The notes under the pieces were generated by a model. The model made no database searches and was not told the origin of the DNA. It saw nothing but the letters and a program-made list of their open reading frames with translations. From Angustibacter luteus (GTDB lineage Bacteria > Actinomycetota > Actinomycetes > Actinomycetales > Angustibacteraceae), in assembly GCF_039541115.1 (NCBI RefSeq), contig NZ_BAABFP010000002.1, forward strand, positions 930,001-994,000: DNA of 64,000 nucleotides. The letters run 5' to 3'. The translations under genes were made by a program, and so were the position numbers. Shown in pieces: positions 10,114 to 15,358 of this stretch (positions within the stretch are counted from its first letter, which is position 1; every line of letters begins with the position of its first letter).

Positions 10114-10335
10114 TCAGCGGTACCGGAAGACGATCCGGCCACGGGTGAGGTCGTACGGGCTGAGCTCGACGACCACGCGGTCCTCGGGGAGGATCCGGAT
10201 GTAGTGCTGACGCATCTTTCCTGAGATGTGCGCCAGCACCTTGTGGCCGTTGCTCAGCTCGACGCGGAACATCGCGTTCGGCAGAGCCTCGACGATCGTG
10301 CCTTCGATCTCGATGACACCGTCCTTCTTCGCCAT
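10114..10335 (-). CDS. infA: Translation initiation factor IF-1
   Basis: [12 protein letters not shown]...[15 protein letters not shown]. Confidence 0.98.
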
Positions 10336-10527: not shown

Positions 10528-11925
10528 TCAGACGGTCAGCACGCCCCCCTCGAAGGCTTGCTGCGTCCCGCCGCCGTCCACCGCGGTCGCCGGTCCCACG
10601 GGGTATCCCCACCGGCCCGTCTCCGCGCCGTCCTGCTTCCAGCGGGTGAAGACCGCGCCGGTCACGGACTGCGTGGTCGTGCTCGTGGTGTCCGCGATCA
10701 CGCCGCGCTCGAAGTACTGGATCCACCGGTCGCTGCTGACCACGCGGTCCTTGACCGGGAACCCCAGGGCGCTCTTCTCGCCGCCCAGCGCCTTCCAGAC
10801 CGTGTAGGAGGTGCCGCTGAGGTAGGCGGTCACCGAGCTGGTCGTGTCCGCGATCACGCCGTGCTCGAAGTACTGGATCCACCGGTCGCTGCTGACGACG
10901 CGGTTCGTGATCGGGTAGCCGAGCACCCCGGAGTAGCCGCCCAGCTGGCGCCAGCGGCCGTACGCGACGCCGAGCACCAGGGCGGTCGCCGAGCTGGCGG
11001 TGTCGGCGATCCCGCCCTTGTCGAAGTACTGGACCCACTTGCCGGACGTCACCACCTTGTCGCCGCGCGGGTAGCCCAGGCTCCCCCGCTCGCGGCCCTG
11101 GGCGACCCACACGGTGTAGGCGTAGCCGAAGACCGCGTGCGCCCCGTTCTCGGGCCGCCAGCTGATCGCTCCGTGCTGGTAGTTCACGTACTTGCCGATG
11201 CCGTCGCCGACCGCGCGGTCAGGTCCGGTGGACGCGCCCAGGGGCGAACCCAGCGACCCGAGCGCGTCGTACTTGCGCGAGATCGGGCTGCACCCCTGCA
11301 GGCACGGCGCGTTGTGCTCCGCCGTCGCGTTGTCGCTGAGCGAGGTCGTGGTGCAGTTCGCCCACTTGTACGGCGCCACGCAGCTCACCACCCGGCAGGC
11401 CACCCCGCCACTGCACTTCACGTGCGTGTTGCACTGCCCGTAGCGGAAGGCGTTGCAGCACACCCGACGCTGGTCGCAGGTGGACTTGGAGCCGCACTTG
11501 CAGCTGCAGCTCCAGCAGCCGGAGCTGCAGATGTTGTCGTCCGAGCAGCCCGACGTGCACTTCGAGCAGCTCGCGTTGCAGTCGGTGATGTAGCGGTAGC
11601 CGCCGCAGCACCACGACGAGTCGGCAGCCTTCCACCAGCCGGCCGCGAACGTGCCGGGCGGGCAGGCGTTGACGCCCTTGTTGATCGTGCAGCACATCAC
11701 CGTGTAACCCGCCGCGCACGACGCGGCCGGGCCGCACCCCACGGCGGCGGAGGCGGTCATCGGGGTGAGCACGTAGTTGCGTGGGTCGACGACGATCGCC
11801 GACCCGACCACCGCCGTCCGCACGAGGAAGCCGCGGCGGCTGAACCGGCCCAGCCGGTTCGAGACCCGCTCGACCAGTCGCATCGTGGGGCTGCTGGCGG
11901 TCGTCGCCTCCTGCAGGGTGGTCAC
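10528..11925 (-). CDS. Tat-exported Cys-rich protein (MauA/amine dehydrogenase light-chain-like) fused to LGFP repeats
   Basis: SRRGFL Tat motif (aa 29-34), ASA cleavage site; 26 Cys in aa 64-212; NACPPGT..GWW and YITDC motifs; about 5 LG[YF]P repeats; AGGAG SD and GTGA overlap. Confidence 0.8.
   Translation of the reverse strand: MTTLQEATTASSPTMRLVERVSNRLGRFSRRGFLVRTAVVGSAIVVDPRNYVLTPMTASAAVGCGPAASCAAGYTVMCCTINKGVNACPPGTFAAGWWKAADSSWCCGGYRYITDCNASCSKCTSGCSDDNICSSGCWSCSCKCGSKSTCDQRRVCCNAFRYGQCNTHVKCSGGVACRVVSCVAPYKWANCTTTSLSDNATAEHNAPCLQGCSPISRKYDALGSLGSPLGASTGPDRAVGDGIGKYVNYQHGAISWRPENGAHAVFGYAYTVWVAQGRERGSLGYPRGDKVVTSGKWVQYFDKGGIADTASSATALVLGVAYGRWRQLGGYSGVLGYPITNRVVSSDRWIQYFEHGVIADTTSSVTAYLSGTSYTVWKALGGEKSALGFPVKDRVVSSDRWIQYFERGVIADTTSTTTQSVTGAVFTRWKQDGAETGRWGYPVGPATAVDGGGTQQAFEGGVLTV
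10688..10904. repeat. Intragenic direct repeat (two LGFP units, 156-nt period)
   Basis: 10688-10748 vs 10844-10904, 59/61 identical. Confidence 0.9.
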
Positions 11926-12401
11926 GGCAGGGCTCCTGTCCGCAGCATCTCGGTCCTGCTGGCGACCCGCACCGACCGCACCATCGCCTGCGCCCGAGGC
12001 ACGGTCGCCATCCGCCGCGAGTGCGCCCCGAGGACGACGAACAGGCAGAACGCCCGACCACCCTCGGAGAAGAAGTGCTGGGCCGCGCTGACTCCGGGGT
12101 AGGACCGGGCCAACCGGTTCGTGGCGAACTGCGACGGCCGCAGCGCCGGCCGGCCCTGCCGCGCGAACAGGCCCTGGTCGGCCACCTCGGTGCCGTAGTC
12201 GATCAGCGAGACGAAGACGTCGTCGGCGCCGAGCAGGTCGATCACCCCCGAACCGAAGTCCCCTCGGACGGCGGGCAGCGGCCGGGTGCAGGCGTGCAGC
12301 ACCGGGTGGGTGACCTCGTCGGCGCCCAGCGGCTCGCGGCGGAAGACCCGTGTCTCCCAGCCGTGCTCGGCCGGCACCGTCAACCCGTACCTGGACGCCA
12401 T
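11922..12401 (-). CDS. Hypothetical soluble protein of the mau-like operon
   Basis: ATG at 12401 after GGAG (track start 12413); stop overlaps the next start; no signal peptide. Confidence 0.8.
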   Translation of the reverse strand: MASRYGLTVPAEHGWETRVFRREPLGADEVTHPVLHACTRPLPAVRGDFGSGVIDLLGADDVFVSLIDYGTEVADQGLFARQGRPALRPSQFATNRLARSYPGVSAAQHFFSEGGRAFCLFVVLGAHSRRMATVPRAQAMVRSVRVASRTEMLRTGALP

Positions 12402-12403
12402 CG

Positions 12404-13090
12404 TCAGCTCCATCCCGAGGCGACCACGACGGTCGCGGTCAGCACCAGCGCGCCCCGCGCCAGCCGGTCCACCGGTCGGGCCCAGCGGTCGAGCCGGGCG
12501 AAGAACCGGTGCAGGTCACCGGGCGAGTGCACGCCGTGCAGCGCCAGGATCGGCAACCCGCGGGCCACCCCGAAGACCAGGCCGAGCAGGAGCCCCACCC
12601 ACAGCTGTCCCGACCACGCCGCCAGCAGCAGCACCGCGTACACCGTCGAGCTGGTGACGATCGTCATCACCCCGGCACCGAGCTGCAGACCGAAGCCCAG
12701 GCCGTAGACCCAGCCGCGGTAGCGGGTCAGCCACGCCTCGTCGACCTGGCGCTTCCAGGACGGCAGGCCGTGCCCGCGGGCCCGCAGATCCAGGGCCAGG
12801 CCGACCAGCACCCCGATCGCCACGAGCACCGCGGCGGCCACCGAGTCACGCCAGGACGCCGGCAGCGCGCTGCCCAGGGCAGCGGCCAGCGTCCCGGCGA
12901 CCGCACCGCCGACCAACGACCCGACGAGGTAGGCGGTGACGGTCAGTCCCCACCGGGCACCACGGGCCCGCTCACCGAGCGGGCTGATGCTGGACAGCAT
13001 CGACTCACCTCAAGGTGACCAGGTCGAGCGCACCGCGGCCACGAGGGCCAGCGGCAGCCCGACGACGACGGCGACGAGCTGGGGGGTCAT
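12404..13090 (-). CDS. MauF/DsbD-like membrane protein with in-frame UGA at codon 27 (candidate selenoprotein, 228 aa)
   Basis: ATG 13090 overlaps the upstream stop (ATGA); reads MTPQLVAVVVGLPLALVAAVRSTWSP*GESMLSSISPLGER, in frame with track ORF 12404-13000; multiple TM helices, RQV and GxQLGxG motifs. Confidence 0.7.
12966..13018 (-). promoter_or_regulatory. Stacked mRNA hairpins around and after the UGA; candidate bacterial SECIS or recoding signal
   Basis: UCACC-UUGA-GGUGA (13018-13005); GAUGCU-GUCC-AGCAUC (13001-12986); GCCCGCUC-GGU-GAGCGGGC (12984-12966). Confidence 0.5.
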
Positions 13091-13932
13091 GGCTGACCCG
13101 GCTCGTCGTCCGGTGGACCGGGGTTCTCGTACATGCTCTGGTGACCCGGGTGGATCCCGGCCCCCAGCAGCTCACGGTCGATCCGGGCCAGATCCGCGTA
13201 GTCCTGCAACGGGTCCAGCCCACCTGCGCCGGCCCCGGGCCCGATCGGGCCCGGTCCGGTGCGGCCCGCGCGGCGACGCGCGTCCGCGGTGTCCGCGACC
13301 GCCTGGCCCATCAGGTCGCGCACCTGGGCCCAGGTGGTCGACGAGCCCTCGCCGGTGATCAGTCCGTCCTCGACGTACACGAAGTACGGCGAGCCGGGCA
13401 CGCCGTAGTCGGTCCAGACCGCATCGGACTGGACGACCTCGAGCCGGTCCCGGGCCAGGTCGCGCAGCCGCGACACGCTCTCCTCCTGAGGACCCTTGGT
13501 CACGACGACGAGCCGGCCCTGGCCGGGGACGTCCGGCGTTCCGACGGACAGCTCGTCCCAGAAGGTCTGGCAGACCGAGCACCCGCTCGACAGGAACGCC
13601 AGCAGGGTGCGCCGCCCACCACCGGCGACGGGGATGGTCACCTCGTCGCCGTCCAGCGTCGTCCCGATCACCGCGGCCGCCCGGACGCTGGCCGGGCGGG
13701 TGGCCGGCATGATGCCGGTCTCGAGGTCGACGTCCACCGGGCCGGTGCCGGATCCGTGCTGGTGCGCGGCCTCCCCCGCCGCACCCGCCGTCGCGCCGGG
13801 CTTCTCGAGGTCGAGGCCGGCACCCAGCTCGTGCAACGCGCGCAGGATCAGCGCGTGGCTGCGGAGCAGGCCGACCACGAGCAGGGCGAGCAGCGCGATG
13901 GCCGCACCTTCGGCGACGACGACAGCGAGCAC
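13087..13932 (-). CDS. MauD-like membrane-anchored thioredoxin-fold protein
   Basis: N-terminal TM helix then LLRSHALILRALHE; AFLSSGCSVC (CxxC); YGVPGSPY cis-Pro loop. Confidence 0.85.
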   Translation of the reverse strand: MLAVVVAEGAAIALLALLVVGLLRSHALILRALHELGAGLDLEKPGATAGAAGEAAHQHGSGTGPVDVDLETGIMPATRPASVRAAAVIGTTLDGDEVTIPVAGGGRRTLLAFLSSGCSVCQTFWDELSVGTPDVPGQGRLVVVTKGPQEESVSRLRDLARDRLEVVQSDAVWTDYGVPGSPYFVYVEDGLITGEGSSTTWAQVRDLMGQAVADTADARRRAGRTGPGPIGPGAGAGGLDPLQDYADLARIDRELLGAGIHPGHQSMYENPGPPDDEPGQP

Positions 13933-13935
13933 GGA

Positions 13936-14484
13936 TCAACCTCTCTGCGGGGCGGTGGCCGAGCGCACCGCGCTCGGGGTGACGGTGGGCAGGACGGCGA
14001 TGACCAGGTAGCTCAGCCAGGTGAGCAGGACGGCGAAGCCGAGGACGGCGACGGCCAGCGCCGGGTCGTCCGTCGCGGCCGCCCACCAGGTGCCCGCGGG
14101 CGGGTCGAGCGCCACCGCGACGCCGGACGCCGCCAGCAGGCCGGTGACCACGAGATGCGCTCGGGTGGGTGGGGTGTCCGGGCGGCCGAAGCAGCCACAG
14201 GAACCGAGGACCCCGCCGCGGGACAGGGCCAGGGCGACGAAACCGGTGAACACGAGGTAGGCGACCGCGACCAGGACGGCGGTCAGCCGGCCGGGGCGCA
14301 CCAGGGCCAGGACGCCCCCGAGCACCTCCGCGGCGGCCGCGGCGCGGACCGGCGTGCGCCCGGCCGGCAGTCCGACGGAGCGGACCGCCCGGACGAGCGG
14401 CAGTGGATCACGCAGCTTGGGGAGGCCGGCCAGGACCAGCAGCACGGCGGCCGCCAGGTAGGCGCAGACGGCGATGTTCCCCAT
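13936..14484 (-). CDS. MauE/DoxX family membrane protein
   Basis: LAGLPKLRDP, AEVLGG, SCGCFG motifs; about 5 TM helices; ATG at 14484 preferred over track start 14547. Confidence 0.88.
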   Translation of the reverse strand: MGNIAVCAYLAAAVLLVLAGLPKLRDPLPLVRAVRSVGLPAGRTPVRAAAAAEVLGGVLALVRPGRLTAVLVAVAYLVFTGFVALALSRGGVLGSCGCFGRPDTPPTRAHLVVTGLLAASGVAVALDPPAGTWWAAATDDPALAVAVLGFAVLLTWLSYLVIAVLPTVTPSAVRSATAPQRG

Positions 14485-14521
14485 GCGGCTCGACGCTACA
14501 CGGTCGGTGTCGCCGCAACCG

Positions 14522-15358
14522 TTAGCCGAGGGGGGCGAATGCGGCACCGAGCTCGGCGAGCCTCTGCGCGCCGCCGTCCAACGCCGTCAGCACCCACAGG
14601 CCGTCGTCGCCGACCGCCACGGTGTGCTCGAAGTGGGCCGCCCGCGACCCGTCCAGGCTCACCACCGTCCAGTCGTCCGCCAGCACGCGGGTCTGGGCCG
14701 ACCCGCGGGTCAGCATGGGCTCGATCGCGACGACCAGCCCCGACCGGACCCGCACACCCTTGTCGCGCACGCGGTAGTTCGGCACCTGCGGGTCCTGGTG
14801 CATCTCGGTGCCGATGCCGTGGCCGACGTACTCCTCGACGATGCCGTATCCCGCGTCGGCACCCAGCACCGTGTCCTCGACGGCGGCACCGACCGCGTGC
14901 AGCCGCTCACCCACCGCCAGGGCCGCGATCCCCCGCCACATCGACTCCTCGGTCACCCGCAGCAGGTCCAGGTCCGCCGGGTCGGCCTGCGCTTCGTCGC
15001 CGACCACCACGGTGATCGCCGAGTCGCCGTGCCAGCCGTCGACGATGGCGCCGCAGTCGATGGAGACCAGGTCACCGTCGGCGAGCCGGCGCTGGCCGGG
15101 CACACCGTGCACGATCTCGTCGTTCACCGAGATGCACACCGTGCCGGAGAACGGCGGGTGCCCGTAGCCGAGGAAGCTGGGGGTCGCACCGGCCTCGCGG
15201 ATCGTGCGCTCGGCCAAGGCGTTCAGCTCGCCGGTGGTGACGCCGGCGACGGCGGACTCGCGCAGCCGCTGCAGGGTCTGCCCGACGAGCACCCCCGCCC
15301 GGCGCATGAGGCGCACCTGGTCCGGTGACTTGTACTGGATGCGGTCGCGGCCGATCAC
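14522..15358 (-). CDS. map: Type I methionine aminopeptidase
   Basis: CISVNDEIVHGVP, DCGA..DGWHGDSA, GHGIG, AIEPM, HFEHT. Confidence 0.97.
   Translation of the reverse strand: MIGRDRIQYKSPDQVRLMRRAGVLVGQTLQRLRESAVAGVTTGELNALAERTIREAGATPSFLGYGHPPFSGTVCISVNDEIVHGVPGQRRLADGDLVSIDCGAIVDGWHGDSAITVVVGDEAQADPADLDLLRVTEESMWRGIAALAVGERLHAVGAAVEDTVLGADAGYGIVEEYVGHGIGTEMHQDPQVPNYRVRDKGVRVRSGLVVAIEPMLTRGSAQTRVLADDWTVVSLDGSRAAHFEHTVAVGDDGLWVLTALDGGAQRLAELGAAFAPLG

Follow-up and report, generated by a model that had tools for sequence, protein, structure and literature searches.

The window analysed here, a stretch of 64,000 nucleotides of Angustibacter luteus DNA (contig NZ_BAABFP010000002.1, positions 930,001 to 994,000), carries on its minus strand a gene for a small membrane protein with a UGA codon inside its reading frame. 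This UGA (13012-13010) is, from sequence comparison, almost certainly a selenocysteine (Sec) codon, with the gene 30 codons longer than annotated. The product is very probably a 228-residue membrane selenoprotein related to CcdA, made by UGA decoding under the direction of a putative selenocysteine insertion sequence (SECIS); it may act in a selenol/thiol relay with other products of the gene cassette in which it lies. It appears to represent a widespread family of actinobacterial selenoproteins that is absent from the catalogues and papers searched.

The gene and its in-frame UGA

The full selenoprotein gene (12404..13090, minus strand; 228 codons and a stop) encodes a CcdA/DsbD_2-like protein predicted to have six membrane helices. 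Its frame opens at ATG 13090-13088 and closes at TGA 12406-12404, UGA being also the ordinary stop codon of this gene. A preliminary description of the region had extended the frame 30 codons beyond the annotated start at 13000 to the ATG at 13090, and these coordinates hold; the coupling that it reported to the stop of a MauD-like gene is likewise seen, the ATG overlapping the stop of the upstream thioredoxin-like open reading frame (TGA 13089-13087) as ATGA. Twenty-six open codons are followed by TGA as codon 27 and then by GGT GAG TCG ATG. The in-frame UGA (13010..13012, minus strand) thus corresponds to residue 27 in the motif WSP-U-GESML, and its assignment to Sec draws on the conservation of the TGA and on the Sec machinery of the genome. 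Translation with TGA read as Sec (U) gives 228 residues, ...AAVRSTWSP-U-GESMLSSISPLGERAR..., with zero cysteines, which confirms the earlier remark that the 227 residues other than residue 27 contain none.

The annotated start is Met31 (12998..13000, ATG 13000-12998, minus strand). A Shine-Dalgarno-like GAGG sits between the TGA and this codon, 7 nt upstream of ATG 13000 and within UGAGGUGAG, which is why gene callers choose Met31. The same start is found in nearly all of the best 120 database homologues (about 198-201 residues, covering at most 86% of the query), and close homologues with a named NCBI entry appear there as 'hypothetical protein', about 198 residues long. Hundreds of database entries are 30 codons short in this way, and have lost the first membrane helix together with the sole redox residue.

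Conservation of the TGA and its cysteine counterparts

When the readthrough product was searched in 61 related genomes with stops read through, 13 gave a match. Twelve of these contain exactly one in-frame TGA, always within RSTWSP-U-GESMLSSI(S/T)PLGER; the remaining one (G040) has none and reads RGTWSP-C-GLSMLSSITPFGER at the same place. A scan of one genome per species, which found 131 relatives and kept 80 of them, gave 76 loci with TGA, three with Cys (TGC or TGT) and one fragment lacking the N-terminus, counts that carry two biases of the scan, since one of its two patterns finds Cys forms only, and Sec forms gain an advantage when relatives are ranked by their similarity to a query of the Sec form. 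TGA is therefore present in 76 of the 79 loci with an N-terminus and Cys in three of 79, the motif ...WSP[U/C]G.SML... being common to both. Pooled, the two sets comprise 81 distinct TGA-bearing and three distinct Cys-bearing sequences. The TGA-bearing sequences span many genera and at least three classes; the sampled carriers are Angustibacter, Kineococcus, Frankiales, Mycobacteriales, Acidimicrobiia, Euzebyales and Actinospongicola, and they include one metagenome-assembled genome (MAG) labelled Streptomyces and one labelled Burkholderiales.

A less biased sample was obtained by a profile search of 1.84 billion cluster representatives, which returned 3269 matches at E <= 1e-3 (451 at E <= 1e-30). 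Among the best 150 of the 3269, 100 start exactly at the Met that follows the TGA site (ML[STAG]S...) and are truncated annotations; the other 50 are full-length proteins of 220-430 residues with WSPCG or WSPCS. On a FastTree phylogeny of 149 of these 150 representatives the Sec/Cys label requires no more than three changes, against a mean of 41 for shuffled labels (0 of 500 shuffles as low), indicating that Sec has been kept across a deep clade. The preliminary description had predicted that TGA in several lineages would align with WSPCG in others; the 76 TGA and three Cys loci, together with the 50 Cys cluster representatives, are exactly such a pairing.

In the 81 aligned members R21, W24, S25, P26, G28, S30, L32, I35 and P37 are invariant, and position 27 is either U or C. 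The 26 codons ahead of the TGA, on whose conservation the earlier reading had been made to depend, are conserved with a codon periodicity: over the ten codons upstream of the TGA the entropies at codon positions 1, 2 and 3 are 0.49, 0.33 and 1.11 bits, a signature of translation in the readthrough frame. On these comparisons the TGA is a conserved Sec codon, neither a mutation nor a sequencing error.

Three further features of the family were noted. The Cys forms (P0126 and others; L098, L101, L114) mostly read WSPCG-L-SML and the Sec forms WSPUG-E-SML, and the Cys forms are 50-100 residues longer at the C-terminus. The codon for Pro26 (13013-13015) is CCT in 61 of 81 Sec forms and CCG or CCC in the three Cys forms; CCT is absent from the codons listed for two other tabulated Pro columns of this GC-rich gene, a pattern suggesting that U is preferred in the position ahead of the UGA. 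A congener has a second copy of the gene (G001:C1:848890-849583; L035-L037) that matches in three frames, contains an internal TAG and looks degraded.

A putative SECIS element downstream of the UGA

Two hairpins follow the UGA in the A. luteus gene. They were tested on 73 distinct 63-nt stretches in a gap-free alignment, with positions counted from the U of the UGA. Putative SECIS hairpin 1 (12986..13001, minus strand; +12 to +27) has the sequence GAUGCU-GUCC-AGCAUC with the loop at +18 to +21; its consensus is GAUGCU-NNNN-AGCAUC, it is 100% paired in the 73 sequences, and the stem is invariant but for one A-to-G change that preserves a G-U pair. We take its distance from the UGA to be about that of the Escherichia coli fdhF element. 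Putative SECIS hairpin 2 (12966..12984, minus strand; +29 to +47) is GCCCGCUC-GGU-GAGCGGGC, with a triloop at +37 to +39 whose first base is G. Its consensus, (N)CCCGCUC-GGN-GAGCGGG(N), is 94% paired and the first loop base is G in all 73 sequences; three of its pairs have changed on both sides (CG 29, GC 21, AU 1; CG 67, UG 4, UA 2; GC 71, CG 2). Taking both hairpins together, 96.6% of cells are paired, and sliding the partners lowers the pairing to 36-49%. The covariation score of the whole structure is 0.060 versus 0.023 when shuffled (0 of 500 shuffles as high). A small apical loop with a conserved G is a common bacterial SECIS feature (PMC1088965, in the part of the article available), and hairpin 2 shows such a small G-bearing apical loop.

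The stem pairing has left its synonymous sites frozen in the Sec forms: Ser30 is TCG in 81 of 81 and Ser34 AGC in 81 of 81, Pro37 is CCG in 79 of 81, Leu38 CTC in 73 of 81 and Arg41 CGG in 78 of 79. At other conserved Ser, Pro, Leu and Arg columns several codons are in use. Codon entropy averages 0.17 bits over the five degenerate stem codons and 1.35 bits over a set of 43 conserved degenerate codons elsewhere (Mann-Whitney p = 1.7e-4). Neither hairpin is present in the three Cys forms, whose codons differ. Minimum free energies average -21.6 kcal/mol over the 81 Sec forms versus -12.0, -12.5 and -4.8 kcal/mol for the three Cys forms, and both hairpins are present in the minimum free energy structure of 75 of the 81 Sec forms. 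The 66 nt folded alone give z = -0.48 relative to shuffles, single-sequence folding being uninformative in GC-rich DNA. The SECIS-like motif occurs once in the genome. A downstream hairpin had been named earlier as what bacterial decoding of UGA as Sec requires; two conserved hairpins follow this UGA, and they are found in the TGA forms only.

Selenocysteine machinery

The preliminary description had proposed a search of the genome for selA, selB, selD and a tRNA-Sec with a UCA anticodon. All four are present and score over their curated cut-offs: selD at 385 bits, selA at 418 bits, selB at 252 bits (only just above its cut-off of 242) and tRNA-Sec at 68.6 bits. The tRNA-Sec gene adjoins selB and is called by ARAGORN as tRNA-SeC, anticodon TCA.

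The distribution of the machinery follows that of the TGA. Among the 61 related genomes selA exceeds its cut-off in 26, including all 12 TGA carriers; the Cys carrier G040 is without selA and has a marginal tRNA-Sec match (48.6 bits versus a gathering score of 47). Among eight more TGA carriers, taken from other lineages, selA is present in seven; in the last, a MAG, a tRNA-Sec scoring 68 bits lies at the edge of a contig. In two more Cys carriers selA is absent and no tRNA-Sec match reaches the gathering score. One selA-positive genome (G068, locus L059) is flagged as unpublished, and no conclusion hinges on it. In total selA was found in 19 of 20 TGA carriers versus none of three Cys carriers, counts that are descriptive and overstate independence, as the genomes are kin. 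In one genome (G036:C1:1777798-1781693; L029) selA is encoded on the strand opposite to the selenoprotein gene, some 2 kb away.

Formate dehydrogenase (FDH) is treated as the main or sole selenoprotein of Actinobacteria (for mycobacteria see PMC13449736, in the part of the text available). The source genome has full Sec machinery, yet a Sec-type FDH was not found in it by two family searches: TIGR01553 gave weak, stop-free matches only, and PF00384 two matches, both stop-free. The Sec machinery may thus be kept largely for the CcdA-like selenoprotein, a suggestion that draws on these two FDH family searches rather than on a genome-wide selenoprotein scan. The spread of the predicted CcdA-like selenoprotein family over Actinomycetes, Acidimicrobiia and Euzebyales contrasts with the FDH-centred view. 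Comparison among genomes is what carries the Sec codon, the SECIS-like structure, the link to the Sec machinery and, as set out below, the family and its cassette.

Relationship to CcdA and DsbD

The source protein matches the Pfam family DsbD_2 (PF13386) at 26.2 bits against a cut-off of 24.9. Of the 81 members, 31 match DsbD_2 and four match DsbD_TM at E <= 1e-3, and no other Pfam family is matched. Alignment of the family profile with 14 actinobacterial CcdA proteins in hhalign gave E 5.6e-5 over 165 columns; U27 aligns with the invariant helix-1 Cys of CcdA, STWSP-U/C lying over SFASPC. The column of the second invariant Cys of CcdA (C134 in the GWxPC motif of helix 4) is T, V or S in the family, and no second invariant Cys exists among the 81 Sec/Cys members or the 50 Cys forms. 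An ordinary CcdA is encoded elsewhere in the genome. A comparison with this single CcdA in hhalign had reached a probability of 1.6%, too weak to be of use, and was superseded by the 14-sequence profile.

The AlphaFold2 model of the protein is of high confidence [predicted local distance difference test (pLDDT) 93.3, predicted template modelling score (pTM) 0.89]. It has a helix break at residues 24-26, beside U27, and broken helices at corresponding places in both halves. A sequence search of the PDB with the family profile gave nothing relevant. We conclude with modest confidence that the protein is homologous to CcdA/DsbD and shares the first catalytic position, and that it is not a canonical CcdA. 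The analogy drawn earlier with the Pro-Cys motif of DsbD/CcdA is supported by the position of U27 on the helix-1 Cys of CcdA, with the qualification that the absence of the second catalytic Cys means that the protein is no canonical electron carrier of the DsbD type.

A conserved five-gene cassette

The selenoprotein gene belongs to a five-gene cassette (10528-14547, minus strand) located between infA (10114-10335) and map (14522-15358) in the conserved ribosomal-protein/secY/adk region. The first gene (13936..14547, minus strand) encodes a MauE-like membrane protein with a CGC (CXC) motif (Pfam MauE PF07291, 57.7 bits). The second (13087..13932, minus strand) encodes a thioredoxin-like (MauD-like) protein of 281 residues with an N-terminal membrane helix and a CSVC motif; its match to the MauD model, at 21.8 bits, is far below the cut-off of 188.6. 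Immediately downstream of the selenoprotein gene, and overlapping its end, is a gene (11922..12413, minus strand) for a 163-residue protein of no known family, for which the Protein Atlas holds unnamed actinobacterial clusters only. The last gene (10528..11925, minus strand) encodes a 465-residue protein with a twin-arginine translocation (Tat) type signal (RRGFL), a very Cys-rich N-terminal domain (over 30 Cys) and, at the C-terminus, four LGFP repeats. Translational coupling is suggested by the gene ends, which abut or overlap (ATGA, GTGA and a 10-nt overlap).

The cassette is conserved beyond A. luteus. In tblastn searches over the 80 loci the thioredoxin-like protein was found in 75, the 163-residue protein in 74 and the Cys-rich domain in 73. 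MauE was found in 68, with all except two of its matches on the strand of the selenoprotein gene; the LGFP part was present in none of the 80. In 75 of the 80 the gene that immediately precedes the selenoprotein gene is the thioredoxin-like one. Gene order varies, with the trio of thioredoxin-like gene, selenoprotein gene and 163-residue protein gene staying together, and the Cys-form loci have the same neighbours in rearranged order.

The thioredoxin-like family carries positive charges after its N-terminal helix (GLLRSHAEILRALH). By the positive-inside rule such a charge distribution suggests that the thioredoxin-like domain may face the cytoplasm, unlike that of the periplasmic MauD. From there it could act on U27 in the way that thioredoxin acts on CcdA. 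A complex prediction of a Cys-form protein with its thioredoxin-like neighbour (locus L098) scored 0.00 and gave no usable answer. Outside the thioredoxin fold the family has two conserved motifs (alignment A7), a juxtamembrane RSHAEILRALH and a C-terminal AGI.PGHPSLY.

The Cys-rich Tat protein is presumed to be the client of the cassette. Its Cys-rich domain (11250-11925, minus strand; alignment A4) contains the invariant motifs CPPG...GWWK, RYY.DCN and FRYGQC, with an invariant Trp-Trp pair. The model of this domain has a pLDDT of 69.5. Its best Foldseek match is the methylamine dehydrogenase (MADH) light chain (1mda_L), a weak match at E = 1.4, and in VIA-align all seven chains with Z >= 2 are light chains of TTQ dehydrogenases, either MADH or aromatic amine dehydrogenase (AADH), with Z only 2.3-2.8. 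The Pfam light-chain model PF02975 gave no match to the Cys-rich protein at E <= 0.1, nor any at the locus in a whole-genome search, and PDB sequence searches with the domain and with its profile gave nothing relevant. The domain may be a very distant MauA-like domain, which we regard as a lead rather than a finding.

Proposed function and alternatives

The reading of the UGA as Sec within WSPUG, put forward in the preliminary description, is favoured alike by the TGA/Cys orthologues, the conservation of both flanks, the hairpins and the Sec machinery. UGA codon 27 is very probably decoded as Sec by SelB and tRNA-Sec, under the direction of the two conserved hairpins at +12 to +47. The Sec stands where CcdA has the catalytic Cys of its helix-1 'SPC' motif and, as the family has no counterpart of the second catalytic Cys, it is the sole redox-active residue. 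The chemistry of the protein, its partners and the direction of electron flow we infer as follows. Lying within the membrane, the Sec could be the nucleophile in a relay of selenol/thiol-disulfide exchange. Its partners would be the thioredoxin-like protein, which is translationally coupled, anchored in the membrane and equipped with CxxC, the CXC site of the MauE-like oxidase, or both. Such a relay would make or rearrange the numerous disulfides of the Cys-rich protein that the Tat system exports. With a single redox residue the protein would have to work through mixed Se-S intermediates with its partners, or as a dimer, in place of an internal two-Cys relay.

Several results weigh against this reading. 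The match to DsbD_TM (PF02683), at 18.8 bits, is below the cut-off of 27.1, and the hhalign probability to CcdA is only 66%, a modest relationship. Foldseek with the selenoprotein model returned nothing at E <= 0.001, so that CcdA was not retrieved; in VIA-align the best matches were RnfA, NorA and NqrE (Z 5.4-5.9, a range common for helical bundles) and CcdA was unlisted. A classical two-Cys relay cannot operate, as the second catalytic Cys is missing. Against Rfam at E <= 10, positions 12800-13200 matched no SECIS family and yielded only two rows, both at chance level, and the invariance of the stem means that hairpin 1 yields no covariation signal. Hairpin 1 and hairpin 2 are each a candidate SelB binder. 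One TGA carrier, a MAG, is without detected selA, and the kinship of the genomes behind the co-occurrence counts has been mentioned.

A bolder extension of the relay can be offered only tentatively, and we hold it to be doubtful as a whole. The cassette might depend on selenium to mature a secreted protein of a new type, extremely rich in Cys and distantly like MauA, with a possible cross-linked or quinone-type cofactor. A single membrane-embedded Sec would then replace the two-Cys relay of all characterised CcdA/DsbD proteins, and in genomes like this one, in which a Sec-type FDH was not found, this family rather than FDH might keep the Sec machinery under selection in many soil Actinomycetota.

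The main functional rival, which is unlikely, accepts the Sec and makes the protein a transporter or chaperone that handles a soft metal, or a selenium or sulphur species, through its selenolate. A single redox residue and the missing second CcdA Cys would suit such a carrier, three of the 81 members weakly match an ArsG permease model, and the MerT-like, SO_0444 and YeeE/YedE membrane transport selenoproteins are listed in Table 1 of a 2026 inventory (PMC13188914). The conserved neighbours argue the other way: two are thiol-disulphide proteins (MauE-like and CxxC thioredoxin-like), another has over 30 Cys, and none was seen to be a metal sensor, an ATPase or a metallochaperone.

Less probable still is a UGA that acts as a true stop, giving a 26-residue membrane peptide and, by reinitiation at Met31, a protein of 198 residues, whether as the sole product or as a selenium-independent alternative beside the Sec form. 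Reinitiation does not predict Cys at exactly codon 27 in full-length homologues, a strict link of the TGA to selA and tRNA-Sec, frozen synonymous sites and covarying hairpins limited to the TGA forms, or a site that aligns with a catalytic Cys in CcdA; what it has on its side is the Shine-Dalgarno-like GAGG 7 nt ahead of ATG 13000, the choice of Met31 by all gene callers and the use of UGA as the normal stop of the gene. A Met31 product is possible as a minor side product under selenium limitation. Finally, the preliminary description had allowed for a sequencing error or for a nonsense mutation from TGC to TGA, which would make the gene mis-assembled or a pseudogene. One base separates TGC or TGT from TGA, and the indexed sequencing runs cover the stretch poorly (no RNA run, and 9% of sampled words in the best DNA run). 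The comparative data refute this reading: the same TGA recurs in 81 distinct sequences, drawn from many genera and from three classes or more, with the downstream frame intact and conserved.

Comparison with known systems

The prokaryotic selenoprotein inventory of May 2026 lists 119 families or subfamilies in its Table 1, and a CcdA/DsbD_2-like protein with a single Sec is not among the 119 families of that table (PMC13188914). No family of NCBIfam release 20.0 matches the source protein at E <= 0.1; among the 81 members at E <= 0.01 the only matches are to ArsG (three) and to a sugar-porter model (one), and to no selenoprotein model. Full-text literature searches combining selenoproteins with DsbD, actinobacterial taxa or cytochrome c biogenesis returned no description of the family. 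In the available parts of two texts, neither DsbD nor CcdA nor the word transmembrane occurs in the deep-Sep paper, and the Actinomarina preprint is silent on CcdA, DsbD and MauE; their supplements could list the family under another name.

The nearest entry of the inventory table, TsoB (NF045694), is also a selenoprotein with a DsbD-type membrane part (PMC13188914). It differs in being rhodanese/DsbD fusion-like, with two Sec in a UxxxxU rhodanese loop, and none of the 81 members matches NF045694. The tabulated MerT-like (PF02411), SO_0444 (NF033936) and YeeE/YedE (PF04143) proteins are likewise membrane proteins with Sec in place of a functional Cys; they belong to other families with other motifs, and their models do not match the source protein.

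The likeness to CcdA/DsbD consists in a small multi-helix membrane protein, a match to DsbD_2 and the position of U27 at the 'SPC' Cys of helix 1. The family differs in having Sec for this Cys and T, V or S for the 'WxPC' Cys of helix 4, and its gene sits with MauE-like and MauD-like genes rather than with cytochrome c maturation genes. A lone selenol without a second Cys does not fit the two-Cys relay of CcdA/DsbD, and would make the protein a tractable case for the preference of Sec over Cys inside a membrane.

With mau clusters, for which no selenoprotein component was found described in the literature searched, the cassette has in common a CXC MauE homologue, a membrane-anchored thioredoxin-fold protein with a CxxC motif and a Tat-exported, disulphide-rich small domain, all in one operon. 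The cassette is without genes for the heavy subunit, MauG or amicyanin. According to a 2026 preprint, MauE homologues can replace DsbB in E. coli, their active site is a CXC motif and their DsbA-like partner is likely to be MauD (10.64898/2026.03.05.709764, in the part of the text available). The cassette, if the proposed reading is correct, would tie this newly recognised disulphide-forming pathway of MauE to selenium.

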